A stretch of DNA of 64,000 nucleotides from Nanobdellota archaeon. GTDB taxonomy: Archaea; Nanobdellota; Nanobdellia; SCGC-AAA011-G17; GW2011-AR17. The notes beneath the pieces were generated by a model, which was not told the origin of the DNA, ran no database searches, and saw only the letters and a program-made list of their open reading frames with translations. Each line of letters starts with the position of its first letter. Within the stretch, counting starts at the first letter, position 1. This document shows, one piece after another, positions 4,595 to 58,984 of the stretch. The stretch spans positions 14,495-78,494 of the forward strand of contig JAHJRD010000093.1 in NCBI GenBank assembly GCA_018830945.1, given 5' to 3'. Made by a program: the position numbers and the translations under genes.

Positions 4595-4595
4595 T

Positions 4596-5558: not shown

Positions 5559-5569
5559 CGGGAAATTGC

Positions 5570-7700: not shown

Positions 7701-7763
7701 TTTGCTTCCCCTCGGAAAAGCCGCCCTCGCTTCAATCAATAAAATGTTTTATTTGCAATAGAA

Positions 7764-10435: not shown

Positions 10436-11159
10436 ACTAAGAGTATTTAAGCTTTTCCGTCAATTATTGATAAAACTCCCCTTTTAAGGCGATTTTGTCA
10501 ATAGATGACAAAAGAATAAAAACAAGCAAAAAGTTTGCATCCCATCAGCCATTGGAAGGGAATAAGACCTGAAGGCAAAGTTTTTATTTGTATTCTCGCG
10601 TATTTGCTAAGAAAAGTTATGAAAATCATACCCAATGAGAATCGCATTTAGGATTCAGTTTCTTAGGTTCTTGATGTGCTAAGTGAAGATGAAGAAGTGG
10701 AAATCTCTGCTGAAAACAGAAGTGTGCAAAAGCTTATACGATTTACCGCCGAAAAAGAGAATTTATTCAAAATATTTCAAATCAAGTCTGAAATTTAAGA
10801 TAAAAGAGCTTAAGGTATTCTCAAAAAAACCTTACTTCAGCGTGAGAAAAGAGCGGGAGATAGGCAGGAATTGCTGTCATTTATGGAAAAGTTTAATGTA
10901 AACATTGGCATTGTTGTCACAAAAGACATGCTGAAACAAGAGCGCATAAAAAACAGAAAAATTCTGTTTGTGCCTGCATGGCTGTTTGCCGCGGCAATGT
11001 AGCGGCTTTATGTAATGCCTGTTATCAAAAAACCCCTTGCTCTTCCTGACCTTTGCTGTAAGCCATGAAATGCATGCCGCAGGCTGGCTTTCTTTATTGC
11101 TGTTTTTAAAAATTCCTCGCAGAAAGGTTTATAAACCACCCCATTTTCACAAAGGAGAT

Positions 11160-19359: not shown

Positions 19360-19881
19360 TTAACTTTCTGTGTATATCTCTTCTTTTGTAATATCTATTG
19401 CCTCTTTGCATATTTCCAGCAATTTCTTAATCTTATCTTTTTCTTCTATCTCTTTTTTAACGCCATACTGGTAATCTTCCCTTAAGTCTATGACATTATG
19501 CTCATGAATTTCCTTAAATTCCTCCTGATGCTGCAATGCCATAATGAACTTATTGCCCATTTTAACTTTCCCCTGCGCTTTCAGGTAAAGAATAGCAGAA
19601 ATAGTGCATTCCTGGTTCCTGCTTTCATAGCCTTGCTTGGCTAAAATAGCAAGGAAGCAATGGTAGATTGTATAAAATGCCGCGCTTGCAGACCAGTCGC
19701 TGAAGCCGCCTTTATGAAAATAAGAAATTGCCTTAAAATTATGCTCTGCTTTTCCCAAATGTGAAACTGCCAGTTCCAAATCAGGCTTAATCTCCACAAG
19801 ACCGCGGTGCTTTTTGCCTTCTGCTATTTCTTTCTTTGCCTTGTTTAAGCACCATCTTACATGATTATACGCCTGCGGCAT
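19360..19881 (-). CDS. HEPN domain protein
   Basis: Shares the YHCFLAILAKQGYESRNQ block with HEPN 41352..41831. Overlaps the upstream NTase by 17 nt. Confidence 0.6.
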   Translation of the reverse strand: MPQAYNHVRWCLNKAKKEIAEGKKHRGLVEIKPDLELAVSHLGKAEHNFKAISYFHKGGFSDWSASAAFYTIYHCFLAILAKQGYESRNQECTISAILYLKAQGKVKMGNKFIMALQHQEEFKEIHEHNVIDLREDYQYGVKKEIEEKDKIKKLLEICKEAIDITKEEIYTES

Positions 19882-20524
19882 CTGCTATTGCCTCCACTGC
19901 CTTATTTTGCCCTTTTAATACAATGCCTGTTTTAAGCGCATCAAATACAATCTTGTCCCTGGAAGCAAGATTTTCCTTTAAATCTTTCAAAGTCTGGAAT
20001 ACAGGGTGTACCATCTTAGGCAGTATTTCATTCTTTTGTTCTATCTTCTTCTTCAAAGAGCCATATTGCTCCTTGCTGACAACTATAAGCAAATCAATGT
20101 CATTATAAGGCTTATCTTTTTTAAGAGCTGAGCCGAACAGGATTATTATGTCTGCTTCATTGAACCCTTTAAATTCTTCAACCCACCGCTTATGCTTCAT
20201 TTCCGCCTCTTCCAGCAAAAGAAGCTCTATATTCTTTCGGGTTAGCGTATTGAAGTCGACCCTGAACAGTATAGCCCTGCCAAAAGCAGTTGCAGTTACA
20301 AAATGCTGCTTCTCAAGATTCTTCAATGATTTTAATGCTCCCCTTGGAGTCATGCCTACAAGCTTGCTTATCATCCTCGCATTATACCTGCTGCTGAAAT
20401 CCTTGAAAAGCAGTAGCAGTATGTTCTTTTCTTTTTCTGTTAATGCCATGGGAACCACTAGTTCATATATAGGAACTAATAGTTCTATATAAGCTTTGTG
20501 GTAGAGCAAAGGTCCATTTTGCAT
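19865..20524 (-). CDS. wHTH-fused nucleotidyltransferase (MNT)
   Basis: GSALKKDKPYNDIDL motif. Confidence 0.65.
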   Translation of the reverse strand: MQNGPLLYHKAYIELLVPIYELVVPMALTEKEKNILLLLFKDFSSRYNARMISKLVGMTPRGALKSLKNLEKQHFVTATAFGRAILFRVDFNTLTRKNIELLLLEEAEMKHKRWVEEFKGFNEADIIILFGSALKKDKPYNDIDLLIVVSKEQYGSLKKKIEQKNEILPKMVHPVFQTLKDLKENLASRDKIVFDALKTGIVLKGQNKAVEAIADAAGV

Positions 20525-20554
20525 TCCTTCTTGTCCTTAAGCCAAAGCCGCCAG

Positions 20555-21145
20555 TCAGGCTTCCTCATGCTCCATCTGCCTCCACCATTCTATCCCTGTT
20601 AGAATTATCTTTCCCTTCTTAAGGTTTTTGTAAAACTCTTTGGTAGAGTTGTGAAATGATTCCTTAAATGAAGCATAATCAAGGTAAACAGGGCTTATTT
20701 TTGTGATTGTTCTCATGCTAATCCTATTGGCTGTGTTTTCTATGCCCTTTGCATTTTCTATTTTTTGAAATACAAGCAGTATGTCAATATCCGAATCTTT
20801 TGTATAATCTCCCCTTGCATACGAGCCAAAAATCACTGCTATAACTGGCTTTTCCTCCAATTCCCGCAAAAAATCAATTATCGCTATCCTTGCTTTTGCA
20901 GGAAGCCCCTCAAGCCTTGAATATTCCACTGCATAAAGCATAGGCGTAAGGGCTTCTTTTGAATAATCTATAAAATATCTTATCTGATTGCCTGCTTTCT
21001 GCATTTTTAGCAGCTTGCTTATTTTTTTCAGGGCATAATCAACAGAGGGCATGCTTATCTTAAGCTGCTTGGACAGTTCCCTCTTGTGAATGCCTGGGTT
21101 CCTGTAAACCTGCTTCAATATCCTTATTTCTGTATTGTCATACAT
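20555..21145 (-). CDS. wHTH-fused nucleotidyltransferase (MNT), no HEPN partner
   Basis: GSYARGDYTKDSDIDI motif. Confidence 0.65.
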   Translation of the reverse strand: MYDNTEIRILKQVYRNPGIHKRELSKQLKISMPSVDYALKKISKLLKMQKAGNQIRYFIDYSKEALTPMLYAVEYSRLEGLPAKARIAIIDFLRELEEKPVIAVIFGSYARGDYTKDSDIDILLVFQKIENAKGIENTANRISMRTITKISPVYLDYASFKESFHNSTKEFYKNLKKGKIILTGIEWWRQMEHEEA

Positions 21146-23916: not shown

Positions 23917-24049
23917 TTTTACCCCCTGCGCTTTAAGCCCGCTCGGCTTGTTACTATGATATAGAAGATACCAGCTATATTAAACTAATCTTTATATTTT
24001 TAATGAAAACCGATATATTTATATATAAAGTAAGGTATATATTAAAAAC

Positions 24050-25674: not shown

Positions 25675-25813
25675 TTTCAATACCCCTGCGCTTAAAGCCC
25701 GCACGGCTGTTTTGATATACTAGTAGTAACATAAAACCATTATATTAACATATATCCTCCCAAAAAGGACTATAAATAGAAACACTTAAATACCTGCTTT
25801 AACACTGCCTTTT

Positions 25814-29222: not shown

Positions 29223-29402
29223 CTGGAAAAGAAATAAGGTTAAGATTTATATATGTTTGCATAAAAGCCGAAATCTGTATTACCCAAAATAAGAGCTGCC
29301 TTTCTCTGCTAATTCCCTGCATCCAGTTTGTTCAGCGCTTTCGGAAAGCACCTTCACTTCGTTCGGAAAGCTTTATTAATCCAATTGCCATTAGTTTTGT
29401 TG

Positions 29403-30335: not shown

Positions 30336-32017
30336 AAGCAAGCGAACTCTACAGCAAAAGTGAAGATGATGAAGGAAGGAATGTCAAGAAATTGATGGAC
30401 GCCAAACGGCAGGGCGGCAGAAGGGATTATTCAGCGCTTATGGACAATGTGCAGATGCGCGGCAGGCTCAACCCATTATCAAAGCTGTTTCGCATCATTA
30501 TAAAAAATTACAAGATTCTTATAAGGACCAGAACCTCTGCTCTTATCTTCCTGCTTGGGCCGCTTCTCATCATGGCGCTTGTGAGCATAGGATTTAACAC
30601 ATCCACATTGTATGGGGTTAACATAGCATCATACTCAGAATCATACTCGCCGCTTGCAGAGGCGCTTATCTCAAATTTGAGCAGCGGAGAATACATAATA
30701 CAGAAGGTTGAAACCCAGGATAAATGTATGAATGCTGTCAAGCTTGGAGAATACCCTGTATGCATCCTGTTTCCAAATGACATGGCTGTTGACAACAGCG
30801 CAAGGAATGTCATCACGCTTTACATTGATGAATCAAGGCTGAACATTGCAAATGCAATAACTGAGAAATTAAGCAGCAAGGTTGCTGTGCAGGCTGATGC
30901 GCTAAGCATGGGCGCAGTAAGCCAGATACTTAACGCGCTTGACAATATTAACAGGGAAGCAGAAGCTGCAAAAAGCGGAAGCGCAATACTTTCATCAAAC
31001 AATGCTGAAGAAGCAAGCACGCTGGCAACCGCGCTTTCAAGCATTGAGGATTTTGACTTGACAGCCAGCGCTATTGACACATCAGGGCCTGCAAGTGAAA
31101 TCAGCAGCATCCAGAGCAGGCTGAACCTAAGCTCAAGCGAATTCACTGCGCTGACTGCCAGCGTTAACACAGTCATCAATGAGTATAACAGCATCCGCGG
31201 AAAGCTTGACACTGCAAAAACAAACGCAGGCGCTGTGCAGGAGAACACAGTATCTGCAAAAAACAAGGTTAATGCTGACACAGCAATAATCAGGGATGTG
31301 AATGCAAAAATTGATACCATCAAGACAAATGTAGGCTCAGTCAAGATTACCAATGTTGAATCAATTGTAAGCCCGATAAAGATTTCAGTTCAGCCGCTTA
31401 CAAAAACAAAGAATTATTTCATATACATACTTCCTGCGCTCCTCATACTGCTTATAATGCTTGTCAGCCTGCTTATCAGCTCAACAGGCGTTATCCGCGA
31501 GAAAGAATCATCTGCATCATTAAGGAACTTTATCACCCCGACAAGCCCGGGCACATTCCTGCTCGCGCATTACCTTACTTACATAAGCATAATAGGGCTG
31601 CAGTCAGCAATAATGCTCGGAGTGACAAGGATTTTCATTAAAGATGTTCCTTTCACGACTTACCTGCTTGCCTTGGCTTTGTTAGTTATATTCGCAACAC
31701 TCTTTATATTCATAGGAATGTTCATAGGCACAATCTTCAATACAGGCGAAAGCGCAACAGTTGCTTCTGTGTCAATAGCAATAATCACCCTTGTGTTCTC
31801 AAACAGCATACTGCCTCTTGAGACACTTTCAGGGTTCCTCAGGCTTGTGGTTGAGTATAATCCGTTTGTGATGATGGAGAAGATGCTGAAAGGGCTGTTC
31901 CTGTTTGAAGCATCTATTGCAAGCATGACAAACCTTTATCTTATTCTCGGGTTCATAGGCGGAGCTGCGCTGATTACAATAGTTCTGCAGATAATGAGAG
32001 AAAAATTGATGAGGTAA
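30332..32017 (+). CDS. ABC-2-type permease with large extracytoplasmic loop
   Basis: N-terminal TM helix, ~300-aa loop, then five C-terminal TM helices. Coupled to the ATPase gene. Confidence 0.55.
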   Translation: MKASELYSKSEDDEGRNVKKLMDAKRQGGRRDYSALMDNVQMRGRLNPLSKLFRIIIKNYKILIRTRTSALIFLLGPLLIMALVSIGFNTSTLYGVNIASYSESYSPLAEALISNLSSGEYIIQKVETQDKCMNAVKLGEYPVCILFPNDMAVDNSARNVITLYIDESRLNIANAITEKLSSKVAVQADALSMGAVSQILNALDNINREAEAAKSGSAILSSNNAEEASTLATALSSIEDFDLTASAIDTSGPASEISSIQSRLNLSSSEFTALTASVNTVINEYNSIRGKLDTAKTNAGAVQENTVSAKNKVNADTAIIRDVNAKIDTIKTNVGSVKITNVESIVSPIKISVQPLTKTKNYFIYILPALLILLIMLVSLLISSTGVIREKESSASLRNFITPTSPGTFLLAHYLTYISIIGLQSAIMLGVTRIFIKDVPFTTYLLALALLVIFATLFIFIGMFIGTIFNTGESATVASVSIAIITLVFSNSILPLETLSGFLRLVVEYNPFVMMEKMLKGLFLFEASIASMTNLYLILGFIGGAALITIVLQIMREKLMR

Positions 32018-32100
32018 AGGCCTGCCTCTGGCGCACATTGATTAATTTTATTTTTTCAAAACATTAAAAGCAGTTGAATTCCAGCGAAGCTCAGCTTTTC
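32018..32100. repeat. intergenic repeat family 2, copy R1
   Basis: AGGCCTGCCTCTGGCGCACATTGATTAATTTTATT...CCAGCGAAGCTCAGC is ~80% identical to 35738..35825. Confidence 0.45.
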
Positions 32101-32864
32101 TACTTAGTCAATGTCCGCCACAAATACACAAGGAAGAAAACGCCGGACATGGCAAGAGCCATTATCAATGCAGGCAGCGCGCCAAGGAAATACAAAAGTA
32201 TTGCTGTTCCCAAGATAAAAACAAAACTGAACGCGTAAAGAGGAGTTGAGCCAATCATTACCTTCAACCCGTCAAGCCCCAACAAAGGAAGCATGTCAAA
32301 CACAGGCATTATTGAATTTATCAATACAAGCTCTGCAAACATTCCGGAGGGGCTTATCAATTTGAAGAATATTGCAAGCAGGATGTTTGCCATTGGCCCT
32401 GCCAAAGCAATCTTTGCCTCTTCAAAATCAGTAACCTCTATTATCTTGTGCCCGAACCTGTGCTCTTTTTTTATGACAAGCCCGTATGAACTCACTGCTG
32501 TAAAAAACAGTCTTCCGTTTGACAAAAGCATTACAAGCAGGCACAATACTATTCCAATTGGAAATGAATGAATTGTAATGTCCCTGCCGAATATATGAAC
32601 TTTTTTTGGGAATCTCTCTCTCAAGAAAAATCTCTTTATGCCCCATATCCTGTATTCGCTTATGAAGCCGTACTTCTTTGCCATTAAGTCATGCGCAAAG
32701 TCATGCACAAAAACACTTATTGTGACAAACACCAGCATTTTAACGAAATTCAAAAGCCAGTTTGCCAGGACAAACTCCTGGCTCTTGTCATTGAATGCAA
32801 ATGCAAGCCCAAGCGTAAGTATGATTACTGCAAAATACTTTAATTCGTTTTTTGTGTATTCCAT
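32100..32864 (-). CDS. site-2-protease (M50)-like membrane protein with HDxxH variant motif
   Basis: VHDFAHDL where S2P has HExxH. FDMLPLLGLDG matches the S2P NxxPxxxLDG motif. Polytopic. Confidence 0.5.
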   Translation of the reverse strand: MEYTKNELKYFAVIILTLGLAFAFNDKSQEFVLANWLLNFVKMLVFVTISVFVHDFAHDLMAKKYGFISEYRIWGIKRFFLRERFPKKVHIFGRDITIHSFPIGIVLCLLVMLLSNGRLFFTAVSSYGLVIKKEHRFGHKIIEVTDFEEAKIALAGPMANILLAIFFKLISPSGMFAELVLINSIMPVFDMLPLLGLDGLKVMIGSTPLYAFSFVFILGTAILLYFLGALPALIMALAMSGVFFLVYLWRTLTK

Positions 32865-33577
32865 GTTTTTTCCATAGATTTTATCTCTTTTATTATCCCT
32901 GCTTCGTGACCCGCGCCAACAACAGCAACAATACAATCATATTTCACCATAAGGTTATATAAATGTTTTGCCATGACAGTGTTCCGCTCTGCAATCAATG
33001 CATTGTACACAGAAGGGTACCTTTTTCTTACATGGCTTATCATTTTGGTTATAATCCCTGCATCAGGCACTTTCCTTAAATCAAACGCCATCCTGTTGCT
33101 GTTTGAAAAAACTCCGAATAGCAAATCCCACAGGAACCTGAATTTCTCTTTCCATGTAATCTGCCTGAAAAGGCTTTTCAGTGTATCCCTTATATCACGG
33201 TCAATCAAGGCAATCTCTGCATTGCACTCTTTTGCCACTTTAGCAGCTGCTTTCATCTCATCTCCAGGAGAAGTGCCAACCACCTTTCCCAGCTTGTTCT
33301 CAACCCATGCCCCTATTAAAGTGAATATGAATGCTTTAACCCCCAATGCATAAATATCCTTTAATGAAGGCTTTTTCCGCTTTTTGTGCATCAGACCATA
33401 AAACCTACCCTCATCAAGCTCCAGGGCAACTATTTGCGGCTTGTGCACTGTAATGGCCTTTACAACCTCCTTTATGCTTTCAACAGCAATGTGCGAAGTG
33501 CCGATGAGATAAAGCCCTTTATATTTAAGCATAGTATCCGGAATGGCGGAAACTATATAAATATGTTTTAACTTCAC
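32840..33577 (-). CDS. TraB/PrgY-family protein
   Basis: LIGTSHIAVESI ... ALELD ... AVVGAGH blocks typical of the TraB family. Confidence 0.5.
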   Translation of the reverse strand: MKLKHIYIVSAIPDTMLKYKGLYLIGTSHIAVESIKEVVKAITVHKPQIVALELDEGRFYGLMHKKRKKPSLKDIYALGVKAFIFTLIGAWVENKLGKVVGTSPGDEMKAAAKVAKECNAEIALIDRDIRDTLKSLFRQITWKEKFRFLWDLLFGVFSNSNRMAFDLRKVPDAGIITKMISHVRKRYPSVYNALIAERNTVMAKHLYNLMVKYDCIVAVVGAGHEAGIIKEIKSMEKTWNTQKTN

Positions 33578-33621
33578 CAGTAATATATAGTATTCATGTT
33601 ACATGAAAAGGAGGAATTGAT

Positions 33622-33906
33622 ATGTTAAAGATAAAGCAGATAACAGACGTTTTCGACATGCAAGTCTTCACAGACACCGGGGACTATTTCGGCGATGTGG
33701 AAGAGGCGATACTCCAGGCAAACAAGATTTACGGCTGGAGAATAAGGGCTACAAGGAACTCTTTCCTTACAAAGCTGCTCGGCGGGGCAAAGGGCGTTGT
33801 CGTGCCCCACAACCTTGTCAAGGCAATCGGCGATGTAATGGTGGTTTCAAAATCAGCTGTACCCTCATATGAAGAGGAAGAAACAGCGCAGGGTTCTGAG
33901 TATTAA
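33622..33906 (+). CDS. PRC-barrel domain protein
   Basis: About 90 aa with a PRC-barrel-like pattern (VFTDTGDYFGDVEEAIL...GWRI). SD GGAGG upstream. Confidence 0.5.
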   Translation: MLKIKQITDVFDMQVFTDTGDYFGDVEEAILQANKIYGWRIRATRNSFLTKLLGGAKGVVVPHNLVKAIGDVMVVSKSAVPSYEEEETAQGSEY

Positions 33907-33989
33907 GCATTTTTCTATTTTTATTTTCTTCTCGAAAAGTTTATATATTGAAGTGTTCTCTTCATTAGTAGTCTTAACAAGGTAGAACA

Positions 33990-34541
33990 ATGGCAGACAC
34001 AGCATTTGGAGTTGTAATTGAATTTCTTGAGAAACTTGGATTTTTTGATGTAATCCTTCCGTTCCTGCTTGTATTCACAATTGTATTCGGCATACTTGAA
34101 AAAACAAGGATATTCGGCGTTGAAAAGATTGGGGACAAGGATTACCCAAAGAAAAGCATAAACTCAATGGTTGCATTTGCAATAGCCTTTTTCACAGTGG
34201 CTGCAAAGCAGGTGGTAACATCACTGCAAGTCTCTTTGCCTAATGTAGCATTAGTGCTTATCATAGTTGTCTGCTTTTTAATGCTGGCAGGCTCATTCAT
34301 GGGAGACAAGGAGTTCAGCCTTGAGGGAAGGAAAGGATGGGTTGCATTCCTCACAATTGTGATGTTCATAGCAGTCATCTTGATTTTCCTTAATTCATTC
34401 GGCTGGCTTGAGCCGATTACAGGCTATATAATGCAGCATACAGATACAGTCCTTATTCCGTTTGTATTAATCGCAGTAATTGTGGGGGCAATGTTCTATG
34501 TTATAGGAAGAGGCCCGAAGGAGAAGAAGGAGGAGAAGTAA
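33990..34541 (+). CDS. 4-TM membrane protein, tandem paralog 1 of 3
   Basis: Shares the ILPFLLVFTIVFGILEK block with the next two genes. Confidence 0.45.
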   Translation: MADTAFGVVIEFLEKLGFFDVILPFLLVFTIVFGILEKTRIFGVEKIGDKDYPKKSINSMVAFAIAFFTVAAKQVVTSLQVSLPNVALVLIIVVCFLMLAGSFMGDKEFSLEGRKGWVAFLTIVMFIAVILIFLNSFGWLEPITGYIMQHTDTVLIPFVLIAVIVGAMFYVIGRGPKEKKEEK

Positions 34542-35138
34542 ATGGTATTTGAAAATGTTGATTTCACTGACATGATAACTACATTGGAGGACATGGGGTT
34601 TTACCAGGTAATACTTCCTTTCATGCTTGTCTTCACAATAATGTTTGCAATTCTTCAAAAGGTAAAGCTGTTTGGCGCAGAAACTAAAAATATTAATGTG
34701 GTTGTTGCTGTAATCATAGCATTCTTTTTCGTCAGGGTTACGTCAATTGTTGCAATCATCAACCAGTTTCTGCCTAAAGTTTCAATGATAGTGCTTGTAT
34801 TATTGATGTTCATGCTGGTATTGGGCATATTCGGCTCAGGCGAGTCAACAGGATGGAGTGGATGGCCTTTCTTTGTAGGCATGGTTGGAGCTGTGTTAGG
34901 AATTGTATGGGCTCTTGTCTCATCATTCCCAGGAATGGGCGGCTCTGGCGGAAGCCTTCTTCCAAGCTGGCTGGTTATCAGCTCGCAGGACAAGGCAATA
35001 CTTTTGGCAGTCGGCATTTTCGTGCTGCTTCTGTGGGTATTCAAGGACAAGAAAGATAACGAGCCTTCATTTATGGGAAAGTTTAAAGAAGGCACAAAAC
35101 CTGAATTCTTTGGGTTTGGCGGGGGAGGCAAGAAGTAG
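34542..35138 (+). CDS. 4-TM membrane protein, tandem paralog 2 of 3
   Basis: VILPFMLVFTIMFAILQKVKLFG, with a Gly-rich C-terminus. Confidence 0.45.
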   Translation: MVFENVDFTDMITTLEDMGFYQVILPFMLVFTIMFAILQKVKLFGAETKNINVVVAVIIAFFFVRVTSIVAIINQFLPKVSMIVLVLLMFMLVLGIFGSGESTGWSGWPFFVGMVGAVLGIVWALVSSFPGMGGSGGSLLPSWLVISSQDKAILLAVGIFVLLLWVFKDKKDNEPSFMGKFKEGTKPEFFGFGGGGKK

Positions 35139-35193
35139 AAATGGTCTGCAAGCGAAGTGAGTGGACCCTCGAACGAAGGGGGACTGAGTAAGA

Positions 35194-35739
35194 ATGGCTT
35201 CAATCATGGATATTGGGCTTTTGGATTATTTTGTGCCTGTGTTCATATTCATCTTCATATTTGCAATACTTTTTGCCCTGCTTGAGAAAGTCAAGGTATT
35301 TGGGGAGAACAAGGGGCTTAATGCACTGATTTCATTTGCAATAGCCTTTCTTTTTGTATTGACTCCTGACTTGCTGGGCGTTGTCAAGATAATGACTCCC
35401 TGGTTTACAATACTGTTTGTGTTTGTCATAATGATTGTTCTATTATTCATGTTTGTCGGCGTTAAAGAAGGTGATATCACAGAGGCATTTACTGAAAAAG
35501 GCATGGTATGGATTATTGTAATCGTATGCCTGATAATCATGATTTATGCCCTGACACAGGTTTACGGCGCGCAGATACAGAACATAACTGTTGACGGGAA
35601 TACGACTGCTGATGCTTCTTCTCCGACAATGACATCGCAGGTTGGAAAGATTCTGTTCCATCCAAGGGTTTTGGGCATGTTGCTACTGCTTCTGATTGCA
35701 GCCCAGGCAGTCAGGTTTCTTGCAGGGCATGCGAAATAG
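35194..35739 (+). CDS. 4-TM membrane protein, tandem paralog 3 of 3
   Basis: FIFIFAILFALLEKVKVFGENKG. Preceded by a family-2 spacer element. Confidence 0.45.
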   Translation: MASIMDIGLLDYFVPVFIFIFIFAILFALLEKVKVFGENKGLNALISFAIAFLFVLTPDLLGVVKIMTPWFTILFVFVIMIVLLFMFVGVKEGDITEAFTEKGMVWIIVIVCLIIMIYALTQVYGAQIQNITVDGNTTADASSPTMTSQVGKILFHPRVLGMLLLLLIAAQAVRFLAGHAK

Positions 35740-35825
35740 GCAGACCTCCGGCGCACGTTAATTAATTTTATTCTTTCAAAATATTAAAAACAATAGAATT
35801 CACAGCGAAGCTCGGCTTATTTCAT
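35738..35825. repeat. intergenic repeat family 2, copy R2
   Basis: AGGCAGACCTCCGGCGCACGTTAATTAATTTTATT...CACAGCGAAGCTCGGC, lying between convergent genes. Confidence 0.45.
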
Positions 35826-38108
35826 CGCCTGCTTTCTAACTTCTTTCTTCAGCCAGTCTTCCCACTCAAACAGAATCCTTTTTGTATCAATATGCCCTTC
35901 ATCCTCCAAAACACTTTCAGAAATCCTGTGGAACATGTCATTTGCCTGTATTACAAATGCTGCCTCAAGCATCCTCGGATTTTTTGATCTTGCAGCATAC
36001 TCAACAACCAGCTTTTTGGTGTCAGCCCTGAGCATTATGTTGTCCCAGATGCCGTCCCAGTTTCCTGTCCACTCCTTTACATTCGCGCCAACTGCTTTCA
36101 AAATCTCTGACTCGCCGTTAATCAATTCAGGAGTCGGCTCAAGCTGGTCTGTCTGCGAATTATATCTCATTAAGTCAACAAAACCGCCTTCTGTCAATGG
36201 ATCATTCTCCCACTCTTTCCTTACTTCAGTAATCTGCGTAACCCTTCTCCATGTATGCAAGCCGTCAGGGCTTTTCAATGGGTTTGCCACAATTATCACG
36301 TCAGTTGCCTTGAATGATGTCTTTGGAACGCCCAAGTCATTCACAACCCTGTCGTATACGCCGTAAGGGGAATCGCCGTGTATTGTTCCTGCAACAGTAT
36401 TTGCCATTGCGCCTATTCTCATTGCCTCATACAATGCAAGCGCTTCCTTGCTTCTTACTTCTCCAATAATCAATGCGCTGTTCCCCAATCTTAATGATGT
36501 CCTTATGCCTTCTGTGGCTGACATCTCAGTGCCGCCTTCCATCAATGCAGACCTTACTTTCAAGGGCTGGATGTCATAGTTAAGTTTTCTTAGAGCATTA
36601 GTGGGTAATTCTAACGTGTCCTCTACCGTTATAATGCGGGAATTTCTCATTATGTCAATCATGCATGCGCCCAATAATGATGTCTTACCGCTTGACCTTG
36701 TTCCTGCAACAAGCATTGTCCTTGTGCCGTCAATCAGGAAGCTTATCAATCCCGCTGCCAATGGATTAATCATCCTGTTCTTAACAAACAATGGAAGTGT
36801 CCACGGCTCATCCCTGTGCCTTCTGAAAGAGAACGCAAGCCCGAATGGGTTTAACGGCCTTGAGACTATTGAAACCCTTGATGTTGAATCAGGGAGGTGC
36901 AGTTCAGTGTCAAGTATCGGGTTTGCCTCATCCAGCGGCCTTCCGCTTAATAATCTGAACTTTGTTGCCCAGCTGTCAGTGTCAGTTCTTGCAGGTATTA
37001 AGTTTGATGTGCAGTTGCCGTAGTTTGCATGCAAGACAAATATTGGCACTTCTCCGTTTGGCGAGTTAATCTGCGCATCCTGCACTTTGGTATCCTTAAG
37101 CACAAGCTCCATGAACCCAAACCCTATTGTGTGCCTTATGAGGATTTCAGTCAGAAGCTTTATGTCTTTCATATTGATTTCAATGCCCTGCTCCTCCGCA
37201 AGCTCCCTTAAAAGATCCTTTCCAATGTTTGAGAATGTGTTTCTTAATTTATGCGGGTCAAGAAAATGCTCTTCCTTTGGCTGGTGCTCAGCCAGCACTG
37301 TCTTTGCTAAATCAACAAGCGTATACTTGTCCTCGCTTATCTTGAACTCAGGAGGAGTCATGTGGTACATGAATTTAATGTCATCTGTCACCCTGAATAT
37401 TGTCACTTCAGTGTCCTTGTCAACTGTGTAAACCTCCATCTCTTCGCCTTCAAGAGGCGGGCTTGCCATCACTCTTGTGAACATGAAGTCAGGCGCAATC
37501 ACAGGCCTGAAGAATAACCTGTAAACACCCCTGTCGCCAAGAGTGTATCCTGCAAGGTATTCTTTTGCAGCCTTTATCAGCTTAAGCTCTGCAAGCATGT
37601 TAAAGATTGCAGTTAAAAGCGAGATGAATATCCTTCTTGAATCAGCCATTCTCGGGTCTGCTGTTGATTCCAGCTTTGCCTCTTCAGCCCTTAACATTCT
37701 TTTTAGCTCAACATATGCTCCCAAAGGGTCTGAGCGCAATAAGTTAAATACAATTGAATGCACAATAGCATATCTCTCTGCCAAAATCCCCTGCGCCTCG
37801 TAAGAAGCGCCCAAAGAGTCAGGGCTTAATACCTTCTTTGACTTGATTAAATAGCTGTAAAGATTTGCAACCTCAACAAGCATCTGCGTCTGGTCATAGG
37901 GGTACTCGTAAAACCTTCTTTGTATGAAAATGATTCTTGCAACAGAAGGGTTCTCAGCAAGCTTGTCAATGGCATCCATCATCACAATGGCTTCTCCCTC
38001 CACTGAAGGCGAGTAAGGGGCCTGCTCATAGTTTACTCTTATTACTTCTTCATTGCCCTCTTTTATAATTTCATATCCCCCTGGCGGGACTTTGTGTGAT
38101 TCTGCCAT
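35817..38108 (-). CDS. FlaI/VirB11/GspE-family secretion/pilus-assembly ATPase with long N-terminal extension
   Basis: Walker A GTRSSGKTS, RIITVEDTLEL, and the His-box region of type II/IV secretion ATPases. About 350 aa of extra N-terminal sequence. Confidence 0.75.
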   Translation of the reverse strand: MAESHKVPPGGYEIIKEGNEEVIRVNYEQAPYSPSVEGEAIVMMDAIDKLAENPSVARIIFIQRRFYEYPYDQTQMLVEVANLYSYLIKSKKVLSPDSLGASYEAQGILAERYAIVHSIVFNLLRSDPLGAYVELKRMLRAEEAKLESTADPRMADSRRIFISLLTAIFNMLAELKLIKAAKEYLAGYTLGDRGVYRLFFRPVIAPDFMFTRVMASPPLEGEEMEVYTVDKDTEVTIFRVTDDIKFMYHMTPPEFKISEDKYTLVDLAKTVLAEHQPKEEHFLDPHKLRNTFSNIGKDLLRELAEEQGIEINMKDIKLLTEILIRHTIGFGFMELVLKDTKVQDAQINSPNGEVPIFVLHANYGNCTSNLIPARTDTDSWATKFRLLSGRPLDEANPILDTELHLPDSTSRVSIVSRPLNPFGLAFSFRRHRDEPWTLPLFVKNRMINPLAAGLISFLIDGTRTMLVAGTRSSGKTSLLGACMIDIMRNSRIITVEDTLELPTNALRKLNYDIQPLKVRSALMEGGTEMSATEGIRTSLRLGNSALIIGEVRSKEALALYEAMRIGAMANTVAGTIHGDSPYGVYDRVVNDLGVPKTSFKATDVIIVANPLKSPDGLHTWRRVTQITEVRKEWENDPLTEGGFVDLMRYNSQTDQLEPTPELINGESEILKAVGANVKEWTGNWDGIWDNIMLRADTKKLVVEYAARSKNPRMLEAAFVIQANDMFHRISESVLEDEGHIDTKRILFEWEDWLKKEVRKQAMK

Positions 38109-38231
38109 ACACCCTCTTTTGTTAATCATAGAAAAGGGATTAAGGTATATAAAGATTGTTAGTGGAAAGTTGCTTATTGCTTATTAGTTGGAAAGCAAAG
38201 AAAGGCAGGCCTCCGGCATTATTATTTTGTT

Positions 38232-39248
38232 TTATTTAGGTTTATATGATATTCCTTTTTTCGTTTCTTCAACCACTTTTTTCAGGTCTTCCTTGGAAGG
38301 CAGATTAAGCTGGTATTTTGAAGCAAAAATCCTGCTGCTCATACCGCCAAGCGCGTATTTTACAAATGTATTGTCCTTTTCAGTGCAAAGCACAATGCCT
38401 ATCGGATCATTTTCCCCTTTCAGTGTTTCATTCTCCCTGAAATAGTTAACGTAAAAGTTCATCTGCCCTGCATCAGCATGCGTAAATTTCCCGCTTTTGA
38501 CATCAATCAGGACAAGGCAATTCAAAAACCTGTTGTAAAAGACAAGGTCAACATGATAATGCTCATTATTTATTGAGATTCTTTTCTGCCTTGCAACAAA
38601 TGCATATCCTTTCCCAAGCTCCAATAAAAACTCCTGCAAATGGTCAATCAATGCCTGCTCTATCTGGCTTTCTGTGTATTGGCTTTCTTGCTTGAGATTA
38701 AGGAATTCAAGCACATAAGGGTCTTTTATTTGCTCATCGGGACTTGTTTGGCTGACTTTTGTTTTTGCAAGCAAGGGCTTTTTATTTTTGCTTAAAGCAA
38801 GCCGTTCATATAGCAATGAATGAATCTGCCTTTCGAGTTCCCTGGAATTCCATCCTTGTTTTTCTGCTTCGTTTAGGTAAAATCCTATTGCTTCTTTATT
38901 TTTAATGTAGAGAACGCTGCGATAATGCGTCCATGACAATTTCCTCCGCACTGCGGAGGAATTCCGGAACAGGCAATAAAAGCGCCTCATTCTTTCAAGG
39001 TTTTCCACGCCAAATCCCCTCCCATATTTCAAAGTTAAATCTACTGATAGCTTTTCCAGCAACCTGCTTCCATAGTCAGCCTTTATCTTTCCTTTCTGCT
39101 CAAACTCTATGATTCTTCTCCCTATTTGCCAGTAAGTGCGGGTTATGGCTGTGTTAACAGCAGATGCAGCCTGCCTTCTTCCTTGTTCAAGCAGTTTTCC
39201 TATGTCTGATATGAGCCTGTTATATCCTGCTTTTTGCATTATTTTCAT
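38232..39248 (-). CDS. DUF1016/YhcG-family PD-(D/E)xK nuclease
   Basis: C-terminal HVDLVFYNRFLNCLVLIDVK(SGKF) PD-ExK core, and an N-terminal DUF1016-like helical region. Confidence 0.6.
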   Translation of the reverse strand: MKIMQKAGYNRLISDIGKLLEQGRRQAASAVNTAITRTYWQIGRRIIEFEQKGKIKADYGSRLLEKLSVDLTLKYGRGFGVENLERMRRFYCLFRNSSAVRRKLSWTHYRSVLYIKNKEAIGFYLNEAEKQGWNSRELERQIHSLLYERLALSKNKKPLLAKTKVSQTSPDEQIKDPYVLEFLNLKQESQYTESQIEQALIDHLQEFLLELGKGYAFVARQKRISINNEHYHVDLVFYNRFLNCLVLIDVKSGKFTHADAGQMNFYVNYFRENETLKGENDPIGIVLCTEKDNTFVKYALGGMSSRIFASKYQLNLPSKEDLKKVVEETKKGISYKPK

Positions 39249-39274
39249 TGCTGAAACTGGCTATCAGCTGCTAT

Positions 39275-39400
39275 TCATAAAGCTTTCTGTGAAAAAACGT
39301 GCCTTTTTTCCTAAAAGTTGTAAAAGTGAATGTGTTTGGCGGAAAATCAATAGGAAAAGTGATGAAAAGCAATGAAATTTTCCGCCTTGCCGAAATAGGT
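39275..39400. promoter_or_regulatory. upstream element family 1, copy B
   Basis: GCTTTCTGTGAAAAAAC plus GGCGGAAAAT...ATTTTCCGCC inverted repeat. Lies 5' of the YhcG gene. Confidence 0.3.
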
Positions 39401-39496
39401 TTTTGGCTTTCCGTCGTCAAAGCTGGCATATATACATTAAATGCCACCAACAAAACAGTGAATAGATTTATATCATATTACTTCCTTATTTAGAAT

Positions 39497-40093
39497 ATGA
39501 TTAAGGCAATACTTTTTGATGCAGGCGGAGTAATAATAAAATCAGGGAACCAAATAAATATATTTGCCAAAATTTTCAGGGCAAAAAACAAGCATAAGCT
39601 ATGGGAGAAGATTAACCATTACGTCGGCCCGCTATGCGCCGGGAAAATGTCTGAGAAAGAATACTGGAAAATTATAGCCAAATCAGAAGGAATTGATCCT
39701 AAAAACATACCTGATAATCTTTGGGCCAAAAACTATGGAAAAACAACCAAGATAGACCATAAGATGATGGCATTGATAAAAAGCCTAAGAAAGCAATACA
39801 AAACCATCCTCATCTCCAACACAATCAGGCCCCATGTAATTATCAATAAAAAGAGAGGGCTGTTTGATAATTTTGATGATGTCATAAACTCAAATGAAGT
39901 GCATCTTTCAAAGGATACAAAATCAATTTTTCAGCTTGCCCTGAAAAGAAACCATCTTAAAGCCGAAGAATGCATTTTTATTGATGATATCCAAAAATTT
40001 GTGGATATCGCAAAGTCTGCCGGAATACCTGGAATTTGTTTTAGGAATGTAAGTCAATTAAAAAAAGAGCTTTCCCGTTTGGGAATGTTATAA
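39497..40093 (+). CDS. HAD-superfamily hydrolase
   Basis: Motif I ILFDAGGVI, with a downstream S/T and K, D..D motifs in HAD order. Confidence 0.6.
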   Translation: MIKAILFDAGGVIIKSGNQINIFAKIFRAKNKHKLWEKINHYVGPLCAGKMSEKEYWKIIAKSEGIDPKNIPDNLWAKNYGKTTKIDHKMMALIKSLRKQYKTILISNTIRPHVIINKKRGLFDNFDDVINSNEVHLSKDTKSIFQLALKRNHLKAEECIFIDDIQKFVDIAKSAGIPGICFRNVSQLKKELSRLGML

Positions 40094-40233
40094 ACCTTAA
40101 TGCAGCTTGCTAAAATGGCATTAAATAATGCCGGAGGCCGCTCCTTTCCCTATACCATTAACCAACAACTCACTACAATAAACACCAACCATTAACCATT
40201 AGATATATAAAGATATTTGCCATAAGATAACAT

Positions 40234-40755
40234 ATGCCAGAGGAACAAGAACAGCAGGGGCAGGACATTGTTGTTGAGCTTGTCAACAGGGTGAGGATTC
40301 TTGAGAGCAAGTACAGCCTGATGAGCGAGAGGCTTCTTATAGTAAACCAGAACATGATTGAGCATCATAAAAAGCTGATGAAGGATTTCAGGGCAGGCGA
40401 GATGGAGATAAAAGACATCAAGAATGACCTTGAGAAGGTGAAGAATATCCTAAAGCATTTGTCAGAGGAAGCTGCTAATTTCGCAAGAAAAGACGAGATA
40501 AAGCTATTGGAAAAGTATATTAAGATGTGGAACCCTATTAATTTTATTACTGAAACTGATGTTAAAAACCTGCTTCAGAGGGAGCTGCGCAGGATTGAAG
40601 AGGGGAAACCCGAGCCTGTTGAAGTTAAAAAAGAGGCAGCAGTTCCTAAGCAGTTAAAAAAGGAGAAGAGCAAGAATGGTTTCCGAGCTAAAGGCGAAGG
40701 TGCTCGAAACTATGTTTCGGCACACCGGGATGAGAATCCCGATTGGAACCCTTGA
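40234..40755 (+). CDS. coiled-coil protein, paralog 1
   Basis: Heptad-rich. The N-terminal MPEEQEQQ resembles the start of the next gene. The 3' end runs into a family-2 spacer element. Confidence 0.4.
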   Translation: MPEEQEQQGQDIVVELVNRVRILESKYSLMSERLLIVNQNMIEHHKKLMKDFRAGEMEIKDIKNDLEKVKNILKHLSEEAANFARKDEIKLLEKYIKMWNPINFITETDVKNLLQRELRRIEEGKPEPVEVKKEAAVPKQLKKEKSKNGFRAKGEGARNYVSAHRDENPDWNP

Positions 40756-40770
40756 ACGAAACGGAGTGAA

Positions 40771-41262
40771 GTGAAAATGCCTGAAGAAGAAACACCGCAG
40801 GAGGATATGCAAGTTTCTGCCCTTAGCAGGGCTGAAGAAGAGATACCAGTGCCGTCTCCTGTTTCAGCGCCACAAATGTCAATGACGCCTTCTGCTGAGA
40901 TGCCTTCAATGCCAACTCCTCCTTCAATGGGATATGATGAGATGCAGTCAATTGTTGAGGAAATCATTGAGGAGAAATGGAAAGAGATGCTTACAAGCAT
41001 GGGTGACTTGACAACATGGAAAGTGCAGGTTGAGGATGACATGGAAGCTTCAAAGCAGGAGATTCTGAGATTGCAGTCAAGGTTTGACACAATGCAGGCA
41101 GCTATTGTCGGCAAGGTTGGGGAATATGAAGGCTCAATGAGGGACTTGTCAACTGAGATGAAGGCTTTGGAGCAGGTAATGCAGAAGATACTGGAGCCGC
41201 TGACTTCTAATATTAAGGAATTGGGAAGGATAACAGAAGATTTAAGAGGCAGGAAGAAGTAA
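40771..41262 (+). CDS. coiled-coil protein, paralog 2
   Basis: MKMPEEETPQ..., a Pro/Ser/Met-rich linker, then coiled coil. Confidence 0.4.
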   Translation: MKMPEEETPQEDMQVSALSRAEEEIPVPSPVSAPQMSMTPSAEMPSMPTPPSMGYDEMQSIVEEIIEEKWKEMLTSMGDLTTWKVQVEDDMEASKQEILRLQSRFDTMQAAIVGKVGEYEGSMRDLSTEMKALEQVMQKILEPLTSNIKELGRITEDLRGRKK

Positions 41263-41345
41263 AAGCCGGCCTCTGTCACTCCGCAAGCTGCGTTCCGAGG
41301 TCCACTTCATTGCATTCGCAGACCTCCGGCATAATTCTATTGAGA
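41263..41345. repeat. intergenic repeat family 2, copy R5 (inverse orientation)
   Basis: The reverse complement (GGTCTGCGAATGCAATGAAGTGGACCTCGGAACGCAG) matches the 35140..35193 spacer. Shares the GCAGACCTCCGGC core. Confidence 0.45.
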
Positions 41346-41351
41346 TACGGA

Positions 41352-41831
41352 CTATCCTAACACCCTTATCGTTTCCCTCTGAACCTTGAGTATCAGTTCT
41401 TTTACCCTCTTCAGCTGCTGCAAATCAATGCTTGTTTCCACGCCGTATGTGGAAATCTCCCTGGTTTCCCTTATAGTCAGGCTGGTAAGGCTGTTCTCAA
41501 CATCAAGAGTGTCAAATTGGGCAATCAAGTCCTTATCCAAATCCAGCTTATGTTCTTTTATCAAAGCAAGCATGGCGGTGATTGTGCAGGACTGATTTCT
41601 GGATTCATAGCCGTATTTGGCAAGTATTGCCAGAAAGCAGTGATAAATGGCATAAAACCCCACATTTAAAGCCCAGTCATATATCTTCAGCCTTTCAAGG
41701 GTTAATACAACACCATAATTATATTCAGACTTTTTAAGGTGCTTTTGCGCTAAATCCATGTCAGCTTTTGCCTTTACCAGCCTTTTTGCATCTTTCAGGT
41801 GCCATTTCAAATGATTGTCTATTTGCGGCAT
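41352..41831 (-). CDS. HEPN domain protein
   Basis: YAIYHCFLAILAKYGYESRNQSCT block shared with 19360..19881. Confidence 0.6.
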   Translation of the reverse strand: MPQIDNHLKWHLKDAKRLVKAKADMDLAQKHLKKSEYNYGVVLTLERLKIYDWALNVGFYAIYHCFLAILAKYGYESRNQSCTITAMLALIKEHKLDLDKDLIAQFDTLDVENSLTSLTIRETREISTYGVETSIDLQQLKRVKELILKVQRETIRVLG

Positions 41832-42421
41832 TTTTTTATTACCTCCACATATTTCTCAGGGTTATGAAATACAAGATTATCTGACATAATGCTATAAAAT
41901 GCCTTATCTTCCTTGTTTTTTAAAATATCTTTTTCAGTTATATCAACATACCTTATTGGCTGTTCAACCAGCCCTGATTTTCTTATTTCATCTTTTATGC
42001 TTTTAACCCCTGCGGATTTCCCAGCAGGGTACATAAGTAAAATGTCTATGTCATTAAAATGCCTGCTTTTTATGGACGAGCCGAATACCAACCCAAGCTC
42101 TATGCTCTCTTTAAATTTTTTCAAGCTGTGCATCAGGACAGACAGCCATTTGGGAAACTCTTCCTGGCTCAGCATGTATTCCATAAACTTTATTGCCAGC
42201 TTGCTATTGTAAGCATAAGAAAAGAAAGCGGAATTTCCTATTTCCTCTTTTACGAGCAGATTTTTGCCTGCCAAAAGGTTGCAGAGCTTATTGGCGTGGG
42301 CATGGTTGATGCCTAATATTCTTGCTAATTGCCGCGGGTTATGCCTCTCTTTGTAGCGCTTAAAAAGAAATTTGGCTATCTGGATTTCGGTCTTTGTGAA
42401 TTGTATGTTATTAACATCCAT
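41819..42421 (-). CDS. wHTH-fused nucleotidyltransferase (MNT)
   Basis: GSSIKSRHFNDIDIL motif. Start moved to MDVNNIQF because the upstream part of the listed ORF is the R6 repeat. Confidence 0.65.
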   Translation of the reverse strand: MDVNNIQFTKTEIQIAKFLFKRYKERHNPRQLARILGINHAHANKLCNLLAGKNLLVKEEIGNSAFFSYAYNSKLAIKFMEYMLSQEEFPKWLSVLMHSLKKFKESIELGLVFGSSIKSRHFNDIDILLMYPAGKSAGVKSIKDEIRKSGLVEQPIRYVDITEKDILKNKEDKAFYSIMSDNLVFHNPEKYVEVIKKCRK

Positions 42422-42467
42422 GTGTATTCTGATAGCATACAGCATATATAAGCTTTGCGTTTTGGAA

Positions 42468-42552
42468 AAGCCAGCCTCTGTCACTCCGCAAGCTGCGTTC
42501 CGAGCCCCACTTCTCTCCGCTCGCAGGACTCCGGCGCACTTCACTCAATTCC
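42468..42552. repeat. intergenic repeat family 2, copy R6
   Basis: AAGCCAGCCTCTGTCACTCCGCAAGCTGCGTTCCGAG...GCAGGACTCCGGCGCAC is ~80% identical to R5. Confidence 0.45.
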
Positions 42553-43373: not shown

Positions 43374-43496
43374 AATTCCAGCGGCCTTTTTAGTTCATAT
43401 CACACAGCACTACCCATAATCCAACACCACTAACTAACTTTATAAATCATAAAACCCTATAAAATCATATATTTAGAACTATAAAAGAGGGAATAA

Positions 43497-57094: not shown

Positions 57095-57109
57095 AAGGGG
57101 ACACCCCTT
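57095..57109. terminator. palindrome AAGGGGACACCCCTT
   Basis: Perfect 6-bp stem just after a plus-strand stop codon. The same GGGG-ACA-CCCC core recurs at ~58969. Confidence 0.35.
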
Positions 57110-58968: not shown

Positions 58969-58984
58969 TTGGGGTACACCCCAA
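58969..58984. terminator. palindrome TTGGGGTACACCCCAA
   Basis: Lies ~18 nt downstream of the lspA stop on the minus strand. Same core as ~57095. Confidence 0.35.

Follow-up and report, generated by a model that had tools for sequence, protein, structure and literature searches.

The question raised here is what kind of sequence returns repeatedly between the genes of a type IV pilus-like cluster in a 64,000-nt stretch of archaeal DNA (Nanobdellota archaeon, assembly GCA_018830945.1, contig JAHJRD010000093.1, forward-strand positions 14,495–78,494; below, the window, numbered from its first letter). An earlier note, made from the sequence alone, had pointed to a family of related intergenic elements between positions 32,018 and 42,552 and had offered three explanations for them: terminator or attenuator RNAs, regulatory sites, and elements resembling MITEs (miniature inverted-repeat transposable elements). 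The results presented below suggest that the elements probably constitute a dispersed, non-coding, DNA-level repeat family similar to repetitive extragenic palindromic sequences (REPs), REPINs and MITEs, which possibly also serves as a bidirectional terminator and which carries a nested micro-element.

The unit common to all of the sites is a 13-nt near-palindrome, GCCGG-CCT-CCGGC, which occurs eight times between 32 and 42.5 kb in three forms (A-, B- and C-type). A loose core pattern matched at 32020, 35740, 38205, 41265, 41318, 42470 and 42523 on the plus strand and at 40130 on the minus strand; only two weak matches, both intragenic, were found in the rest of the 64 kb (outside 32,020–42,535). 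The two A-type copies, A1 and A2, are 79% identical without gaps over 73 nt according to the repeat finder (32009–32081 vs 35729–35801), or 80% identical in a separate alignment, and their local alignment score of 92 compares with 16.3 ± 2.8 for dinucleotide shuffles (0 of 1000 as good). The B-type copies, B1 and B2 (41261–41337 vs 42466–42542), share 83% identity over 77 nt and score 86 vs 15.3 ± 2.6 (0 of 1000), and a perfect 16-nt inverted repeat, GGCCTCCGGCATTATT, lies at 38208–38223 and 40124–40139 (0 of 1000 shuffles). The related intergenic elements at eight sites within 10 kb, the two long pairs of about 80% identity and the mutual inversion of the two short copies, all claimed in the earlier note, were thus borne out. 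Since dinucleotide shuffles keep the A/T composition, and the scores lie far above them, the identity does not fall to background when A/T runs are discounted.

Relatives were reached through exact and homologous proteins that led to syntenic contigs, all by way of the same pilus locus: L002 and L003 (GCA_053533675.1), L004 and L005 (two Logan assemblies), L019 (GCA_028706745.1), L020 (SRR16606022), L021 (a JGI contig, FlaI 73% identical), L022 and L023 (two groundwater assemblies), L024 (a Logan assembly), and L025 (GCA_030018575.1). The comparison took in 64 kb from the source genome and some 140 kb from the relatives. Alignment of 21 cores from the window and the relatives together yielded the consensus GCCGGCCTCCGGC, in its wider context (A)AAA-GCCGG-CCT-CCGGC-AT(T/G)AATT..., i.e., a GC stem of 5 bp whose loop measures 3 nt, bordered by an A-run and, at the opposite side, by an AT/T-rich run. 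All of the copies are intergenic, and 80% of the stem cells are paired. The pattern proposed previously, with GCAG(A/G), has four matches with up to two mismatches against 0.72 expected; relative to the consensus across relatives, GCAGR is a variant of the left half-stem.

In the A-type (about 85 nt), the core, P1, is followed by an AT-rich spacer of ~50 nt and then by a second palindrome, P2 (GCGRAGCTCSGC), and a run of T's. The centre of the spacer holds a conserved TTTYAAAA (T4/A4), which provides oligo-T on either strand. Because P1 is joined to P2 across this T4/A4 spacer, the whole A-type forms a long imperfect palindrome; its two end palindromes differ in sequence, and its terminal inverted repeats, AAAGCCnGCCTCCGGC and the reverse-complemented GCGAAGCTCGGCTTT, match at ~12 of 16 positions. 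Most of the full copies recovered with the A-type profile also match it on the opposite strand. A1 (32016–32101, plus strand) is located between the stops of an ABC-2 permease gene (+) and an M50-like gene (−), with P1 GCCTGCCTCTGGC at 32020–32032, P2 GCGAAGCTCAGC at 32084–32095, and an AT-rich spacer with a T-run and an A-run; its E-value in the A-type profile search is 4 × 10−21, and 9 × 10−4 on the reverse strand. A2 (35737–35821, plus strand) is situated between the stop of gene 47 (+), one of the membrane paralogs, and that of the gene for a FlaI-like ATPase (−), with P1 GCAGACCTCCGGC at 35740–35752 and P2 GCGAAGCTCGGC at 35805–35816 (E-value, 4 × 10−20). A P2-like palindrome, GGCGGAGCTGCGCTG, is also present in inverted orientation at 31958–31975, within the last ~20 codons of the ABC-2 permease gene and ~45 nt upstream of the A1 core; the 3' end of this gene may have been built from an older element.

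The C-type is a solo core. C1 (38201–38234, plus strand) contains the core GCAGGCCTCCGGC at 38205–38217, with an A-run before and a T-rich run after it (core profile E-value, 6 × 10−7), and is found downstream of a YhcG/DUF1016 gene and upstream of the FlaI promoter. C2 (40119–40146, minus strand; core at 40130–40142) is inverted relative to C1 and lies downstream of a HAD phosphatase gene. Both positions are occupied in relatives as well, that of C1 in L003 (6827) and L019 (9903) and that of C2 in L019 (7534) and L022 (7542).

The B-type had been read as two cores ~80 bp apart, and is better described as a single core split by an insertion. B1 (41261–41337, plus strand), between the stops of the coiled-coil gene 53 (+) and a HEPN gene (−), is interrupted in the loop: GCCGG CCTCT at 41265–41274 is followed by a 48-nt insert at 41275–41322 and by CCTCC GGC at 41323–41330, so that 41265–41337 reads, on the plus strand, AAAAGCCGG-CCTCT, 48 nt, CCTCC-GGCATAATTC. 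With the 48 nt and one pentamer removed, AAAAGCCGGCCTCCGGCATAATTC remains, a perfect consensus core. Uninterrupted cores are found at the same place, just 3' of the gene 53 stop, in L020 (8984), L002 (3324) and L005 (about 33). B2 (42466–42542, plus strand) consists of GCCAG CCTCT, an insert at 42480–42527 and ACTCC GGCGCAC, and has a small Cys-rich gene (−) on one side and the promoter of an MNT/HEPN module (−) on the other. Beyond the core, the flank of B2 (GCAC...) is A-type-like and that of B1 (ATAATTC) is C-type-like.

The insert of B1 is oriented on the minus strand, where it reads TCTGCGAATGC...GGAGTGAC (insert profile E-value, 2 × 10−10); the reverse complement of the plus-strand letters opens with TCTGCGAA and closes with GGAGTGAC. 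The insert is related to a second 48-nt sequence, the spacer at 35145–35192, with 2 of 1000 and 9 of 2000 shuffles aligning as well, and to a copy in L020 (1 of 2000), where the alignment begins at base 1 in both. Five copies of this mini-insert, 47–48 nt long, were counted in the window and the relatives. The insert is flanked by a target duplication of 4–5 nt, which is CCTCT/CCTCC within B1 and AATGG/AATGG in three cases.

The uninterrupted A2 and C1 cores (35740–35752 and 38205–38217) start with GCAGA and GCAGG, where the consensus half-stem is GCCGG, and the same start is found at the 3'-end junctions of the mini-insert in B1 and B2 (41318–41330 and 42523–42535). These starts might have been left behind by old insertions, might have come from B-type copies by gene conversion, or might be coincidental.

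The spacer at 35145–35192 revealed the second kind of site at which the mini-insert is found. This copy, B3 (plus strand), stands in sense orientation behind the gene 46 stop and ahead of the gene 47 ATG, and is flanked by AATGG at 35140–35144 and at 35193–35197, giving the junction ...TAGA-AATGG-[48 nt]-AATGG-CTTC. In L003, L004, L019, L020 and L021 the site is empty, with the gene 46 stop 0–1 nt from the ATG. A copy of ~85% identity is inserted at the gene 45/46 junction of L020 (...TAA-ATGG-[48 nt + A]-ATGG-TATT), where the window has an empty site (34541/34542). A third copy occupies the start codon of the FlaJ-like gene in L022 (AGAATGG-[47 nt]-AGAATGG-TTTTG), was confirmed in the independent assembly L023, and has an empty site in six other genomes, the window included. 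All three of the start-codon copies are in sense orientation, and each has an empty site elsewhere. The spacer 35139–35193 had been listed as a member of the repeat family; it is akin to the interior of B1 and B2 (p about 0.001–0.005), but contains no core.

In the start-codon copies, the upstream copy of the ATG opens a 14–16-codon open reading frame (ORF), whose stop (GAG-TGA or GAG-TAA) falls two to nine bases before the ATG of the gene, and a purine-rich GGAGG or GGGGG is located 11–13 nt upstream of the same ATG. The idea that this ORF encodes a conserved peptide was rejected, since the conserved nucleotides are in different frames in the two subtypes. A C/D-box small RNA was considered as well: CUGA is present near the 3' end of the insert, no C box was seen by eye, and the matches to Rfam snoRNA models were at chance level. 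An insertion of IS200/IS605 type, which makes no duplication and has a fixed right end, is less likely because the right pentamer follows the target, being AATGG at start codons and AGAGG/GGAGG in the core. A tentative interpretation is that the 48-nt insert represents an undescribed kind of micro-transposon of DPANN archaea, which would make a 4–5-nt duplication and have two precise targets, namely the loop of the REP-like core (GGAGG) and the (A)ATGG start context, the latter in sense orientation.

A 95-nt lineage-specific insertion (40680–40774, plus strand) is located directly after AATGG (40675–40679), in the ancestral start context of gene 53. According to protein and DNA alignments with L002, L019, L020 and L022, it adds 25 codons to gene 52. 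Its 3' 35 nt resemble the mini-insert weakly (p 0.004–0.05), and judging by these letters it is a probable diverged or compound relative of the mini-insert. The spacer 40749–40779, which had likewise been assigned to the repeat family, shows just this weak similarity (p 0.004–0.05) and is the 3' end of the 95-nt insertion.

The motif CGAACGAAGTGA(G) occurs twice within the 48-nt mini-insert. It was also observed in the SecF/ABC intergenic region of the window (29338–29365), in the ortholog of this region in L025 (14486–14513), and in a GC hairpin of L019 (~6400–6440), and may, as far as these occurrences tell, be a shared binding motif or reflect remnants of the insert.

Comparison of the relatives demonstrated that the A-type is dispersed and turns over. 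The A-type profile recovered nine full copies in 202 kb from six genomes, and copies are present in at least five related genomes. Some stand at non-orthologous places, as in L002 (4201–4286, by a strain-specific cassette) and in L005 (29–114, after the gene 53 ortholog, the place of B1 in the window). At the ABC-2/M50 junction, the element of L004 (3487–3573) is opposite in orientation to A1, L003 has a different sequence, and the more distant L021 lacks an element, its two stops being separated by 5 nt. At the A2 junction, an element of the same architecture is present in L020 (12363–12448) and a partial one in L025. Within a genome, copies are 80% (A1 and A2) or 93% (the two copies of L022, 78/80 in the core 80 nt) identical; between genomes the identity is 49–67%, even at the same junction. 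The two near-identical copies of L022 are inverted and flank a ~6-kb segment, composed of a 121-aa gene, 53, 52, MFS, Fic and FlaI; compared with the window, L019 and L020, this segment is inverted. In addition, cores adjoin strain-variable cargo, including YhcG+HAD, AbiE+HAD, Fic+MFS, HEPN-MNT, a Schlafen/AlbA gene, DUF3800, and restriction-modification genes.

Among these cargoes, the 2-kb block 38157–40203, which comprises YhcG+HAD, C1 and C2, is flanked by an 11-nt direct repeat, TATATAAAGAT, at 38146–38156 and 40204–40214. L020 has no block and a single TATATAAAGAT, in the TATA-box region, for both of its divergent promoters. The second TATATAAAGAT could have arisen as the target duplication of an element that carried cargo, or through duplication of a promoter. 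Just inside the repeats, a C-poor tract (38157–38204; 3 C in 48 nt) lies outside C1, and its mirror, a G-poor tract with 1 G in 61 nt (40143–40203), lies outside C2. Strand-asymmetric tracts of 25–90 nt, rich in TAG/TTGG or CTA/CCAA, were observed on the A-run side of many cores, elsewhere in the window (43395–43445) and in L003 (3985–4040), L004 (3455–3480 and 3585–3670), L022 (7460–7545), L020 (8840–8900) and L019.

Of the three explanations offered earlier, the MITE-like one fits best, because the elements are imperfect palindromes, are dispersed at non-orthologous places, and are more alike within than between genomes, because one of them is inverted at the same junction in a relative, and because one sub-element has filled and empty sites and target-site duplications. 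Under this reading, copies would arise or be homogenised within a genome, whether through gene conversion or through a transposase provided in trans, and would then decay. Being repeated and palindromic, they would serve as substrates for recombination, allowing inversion between inverted copies and exchange of the adjacent strain-specific cassettes, and, since each strand would present a GC hairpin followed by oligo-T, they would form probable bidirectional transcription stops at operon ends. The B-type would be a nested event, in which the separate 48-nt micro-element entered the loop of a core with a 4–5-nt target duplication. The same micro-element would insert, in sense orientation, after (A)ATGG, bringing a short upstream ORF and its own purine-rich, Shine-Dalgarno-like stretch.

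Several observations weigh against this reading. The Pfam scan revealed no transposase, integrase or Y1/RAYT-like gene among 68 window ORFs (of ~75 called), so that mobilisation in trans is an assumption, and no target duplication could be demonstrated for the A-type itself. The palindromes are modest in number and clustered, with ~10 in 10.5 kb and two to four weak ones in the other 53 kb. The two A-type copies of L020 are only 57% alike; therefore, homogenisation is not universal. The 48-nt insert has no clear terminal inverted repeats, and only five to six copies of it are known. B1 and B2 carry the same C-to-T change at the left junction, and B2 could therefore be a copy of the whole B1, not an independent insertion. 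Finally, archaeal termination needs only oligo-T, and a hairpin is not required.

Searches for further copies covered several collections. The 31-mer shared by B1 and B2 and a gapped A-type pattern gave 0 matches each in a genome contig collection that does not include this lineage. A degenerate pattern of the A-type 5' part gave one match in metagenome contigs, also without this lineage, which lies in an ORF of an unrelated contig and was taken as chance. In viral contigs, a perfect core with an A-run had 12 single matches, which were left uninspected and taken as chance, and two patterns of the mini-insert had 0 matches each. Searches with blastn against phages and plasmids yielded nothing.

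The folding of the elements bears on whether they act as RNA. RNA and DNA folds of the window copies have z-scores from −1.3 to +1.4 relative to shuffles, i.e., they fold no better than shuffled sequences, and RNAalifold gave −5.3 kcal/mol. No compensatory change was found in the 5-bp stem across the 21 cores, and shuffles of the alignment columns do equally well. A significant fold was obtained for the L004 copy alone (z = −3.45; the window copies set beside it have z > 0), and it consists of P1, an AT hairpin of 11 bp, and P2. Such a pattern is expected of decaying copies of a palindromic master, not of a structure under selection. The search of Rfam produced no match at the gathering threshold and only two chance hits (E-values > 3). 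On these grounds a structured RNA was rejected, and the attenuator proposed in the earlier note is not supported. No tRNA is encoded in the window; thus, tRNA fragments and att sites of that kind were rejected too.

A terminator role for the elements is plausible from their sequence and position. Within 32–42.5 kb, each element has a gene 3' end next to it on at least one side, and the divergent promoter regions of that stretch contain no element. The location at convergent gene pairs described earlier applies to only three sites; the rest are between tandem genes. It is, however, unlikely that the elements are nothing but selected terminators or hairpins stabilising 3' ends, not mobile, whose likeness stems from shared function and occasional gene conversion. 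All nine of the transcription-unit ends in 32–42.5 kb have a core or P2 within ~45 nt of the stop, the central TTTYAAAA of the A-type gives oligo-T on both strands, with an A-run and a T-run flanking the hairpin, and at the gene 47/FlaI junction it is the architecture, not the sequence, that is kept between the window and L020. Nevertheless, sequence variation breaks the stem in 20% of the cells and never restores pairing, the folds of the window copies equal those of shuffles, and a consensus terminator scan did not flag the cores. The motif is lacking at most of the other gene ends of the window, and one copy stands in a probable divergent promoter region. Furthermore, neither the flipped orientation at the same junction nor 93% identical copies 6 kb apart would be needed for such a function.

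GC palindromes unrelated to the core were observed in two other post-gene intergenic regions of the window, GGGGACACCCC at 57097–57107 and GGGGTACACCCC at 58971–58982; they suggest that such hairpins are common in this genome, a point that would favour the terminator explanation. Two further stretches, at 23917–23950 and 25675–25710, are alike (ACCCCTGCGCTT(T)AAAGCCCGC(T/A)CGGCT), and each is directly upstream of the start of a minus-strand gene; these are a separate small repeat or leader family.

Less probable still is that the cores are att- or attC-like sites of a site-specific recombinase, forming an integron-like or shufflon-like platform. The arrangement of the cargo would suit it: YhcG+HAD is enclosed by C1 and C2 in inverted orientation and HEPN-MNT by B1 and B2 in direct orientation, the same borders enclose different cargo in L019, L022, L002 and L005, the segment of L022 was inverted between inverted copies, and the 11-nt direct repeat of the 2-kb block is single in the minimal locus. 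On the other hand, neither the Pfam scan of 68 window ORFs nor the precomputed Pfam annotations listed for genes of the relatives' fetched loci showed a tyrosine or serine recombinase, the cores, as read from the sequences, are without the integron R''/R' consensus (RYYYAAC...GTTRRRY), and the cassettes are in mixed orientations. The A-type also stands between conserved housekeeping-type genes and in the cassette-free minimal locus, and an 80-nt repeat identical at 78 of 80 positions suffices for homologous recombination. It is very improbable that the cores are operators through which a DNA-binding protein regulates the type IV pilus-like locus. They are clustered around the FlaI/FlaJ-like genes and are conserved more in sequence than in pairing, but they are positioned at 3' ends rather than promoters, are missing from the minimal locus's divergent promoter, and occur beside unrelated genes (ABC-2 permease, ribosomal L15e, ThiF); in addition, the relatives were sampled with a bias to this locus.

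The reading as a REP/REPIN/MITE-like family can be compared with known systems. Bacterial REPs are targets of insertion sequences (ISs), recombine mutually and adjoin strain-specific loops (PMC1525189), and their ends can abut or supply stop codons (PMC3733652). Like REPs, bacterial interspersed mosaic elements (BIMEs) and REPINs, the elements described here are short, GC-rich, imperfect extragenic palindromes, often located just after stops, singly or as an inverted pair (PMC1525189, PMC3733652, PMC3116915), and they too would be substrates of recombination, stand next to strain-specific segments and are targets of an insertion element. As for the long hairpin of REPIN type, most of the full A-type copies hit their own profile on the reverse strand, and only the L004 copy folds better than shuffles. 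They differ in that the host is archaeal (DPANN), P1 and P2 of a pair differ in sequence, the known copies number tens at most, not hundreds, and no RAYT gene was found among the 68 window ORFs. The GTAG or CGTC tag that is a feature of REPs (PMC3733652) is absent beside the stem in the 21-copy alignment. The likeness is therefore offered as an analogy, and membership of the REP, BIME or REPIN families is not claimed. With MITEs, the elements share small size, non-coding sequence, inverted ends, an AT-rich interior, intergenic location, presence or absence between close strains, and copies closer within a genome than between genomes. Target-site duplications together with filled and empty sites are likewise shared, here for the 48-nt insert only (AATGG three times, CCTCY in the core). 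In contrast to MITEs, the A-type has no demonstrable target-site duplication, each of its inverted ends is a hairpin complementary to itself, a parent IS sharing these ends is not known, and no IS is found in the window.

Insertion inside an extragenic palindrome, as in B1 and B2, resembles that of the REP-targeting IS1397, ISKpn1, IS621 and ISPpu9 (PMC1525189), but the insert here is 48 nt long and non-coding, and has a second target class, (A)ATGG. Integron attC sites are similar in being imperfect palindromes of 60–140 nt at cassette borders. Integrons have reportedly been found in archaea (Ghaly et al., 2022). The A-type ends, GCCGGCC... and ...GCTCGGC, have no GTTRRRY, no IntI or other integrase was found in the 64 kb, cassette genes are on both strands, and elements also stand between conserved genes, all of which sets the present family apart from attC. 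Intrinsic, bidirectional and archaeal oligo-T terminators are alike in having a GC hairpin with an A-run and a T-run, a location between convergent genes, and oligo-T on both strands; the difference is that here an 85-nt sequence recurs at 80–93%, flips orientation and shows no covariation. Lastly, Rickettsia palindromic elements and Neisseria Correia elements are also small, mobile palindromic repeats in or next to genes that alter expression signals, to which the start-codon insertions may be compared, but they are 100–150 nt long with clear inverted repeats, the former being in frame inside genes and the latter duplicating TA.

Profile searches added weaker members outside the range described earlier. 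A degenerate A-type-like element (192–277, plus strand) has its right palindrome, GGCGGAGCCCGGCC, at ~258–271 (E-values, 0.0045 with the core and 6 × 10−4 with the A-type profile) and is probably located in a divergent promoter region, as an exception to the 3'-end rule. A solo core variant, AAAGCCAGCCTGCGGCATGCATTTCAT (11065–11091, minus strand; E-value, 0.013), is found upstream of the ribosomal L15e promoter, and 7714–7755 is possibly a further member. Another repeat, CCCTCGTAAAAGCCGCCTTC, was observed at 5094–5119, 6291–6316 and 7703–7728 (two of the copies are 88% identical), one copy after each tandem HEPN/nucleotidyltransferase module. The copy at 7714–7755 continues ...TTCAATCAATAAAATGTTTTATTT, resembling the 5' half of the L002 A-type element, and the repeat may be a distant relative of the core (profile E-values of only 0.9–2.3).

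The window has a G+C content of 42%, its proteins are deposited as MBU26388xx with KJ955_ locus tags, and the nearest FlaI-like ATPases are annotated as Nanoarchaeota/Woesearchaeota; the host is a Woesearchaeales-like DPANN archaeon, represented by a metagenome-assembled genome of Nanoarchaeota/Woesearchaeales type. Between 30 and 46 kb, it encodes an ABC-2 exporter, M50-like and TraB-like genes (−), a PRC-barrel gene, three tandem membrane paralogs (genes 45–47, +), the FlaI-like ATPase (763 aa, −), the YhcG/DUF1016 nuclease (−), the HAD phosphatase (+), two coiled-coil paralogs (genes 52 and 53, +), a HEPN/nucleotidyltransferase pair (−), two small genes, and a FlaJ-like membrane protein (+). 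The locus of L020 is minimal (FlaJ-53-52 <-> FlaI-47-46-45), without the accessory genes. All of the relatives were reached through this one locus, so that the way of sampling may account for the enrichment of the elements in the pilus cluster.

In relatives (P0027, P0028, P0030 and others), many FlaI-like ATPase orthologs contain an intein with a LAGLIDADG domain, which the window copy lacks, and a primase-like ORF at the right end of the window (62192–64000) has a weak intein-splicing match. Four HEPN/nucleotidyltransferase modules, toxin-antitoxin-like, are present in the 64 kb, two of them in tandem (5133–7479, 19360–21145, 41352–42445), and inverted TTTCCGC/GCGGAAA motifs were noticed upstream of several of these modules and of the YhcG gene (5646, 7594/7638, 39339/39379). 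Seven or eight consecutive minus-strand ORFs at 1310–4940 have no Pfam match at E ≤ 0.001, and this block may be an integrated element or a lineage-specific island.

DPANN genomes are tiny and streamlined, and are usually thought to be repeat-poor. No description of REP/REPIN-like palindromes in DPANN archaea was found in the searchable literature, and the present analysis points to a REP/REPIN-like family in one Woesearchaeales-like clade, which lies at the edges of defence and toxin-antitoxin cassettes that vary between strains, and at those of an inversion in a type IV pilus-like cluster, and which is itself the target of a smaller mobile element that also lands on start codons. Of the components, the most novel is this 48-nt insert, which is aimed at start codons and at the loops of hairpins. 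If the tentative interpretation given above is true, the insert would rank with the smallest known mobile DNA elements, would have no obvious inverted ends, would give the gene it hits an upstream ORF and a new ribosome-binding stretch, rewiring translation initiation, and its choice of target may be read from the Shine-Dalgarno/start region. It would illustrate how, in nature, a mobile element can part cistrons that overlap or abut and at the same time bring in new translation signals. If confirmed genome-wide, the repeat family would provide a handle on rearrangement and accessory-gene exchange in reduced genomes.

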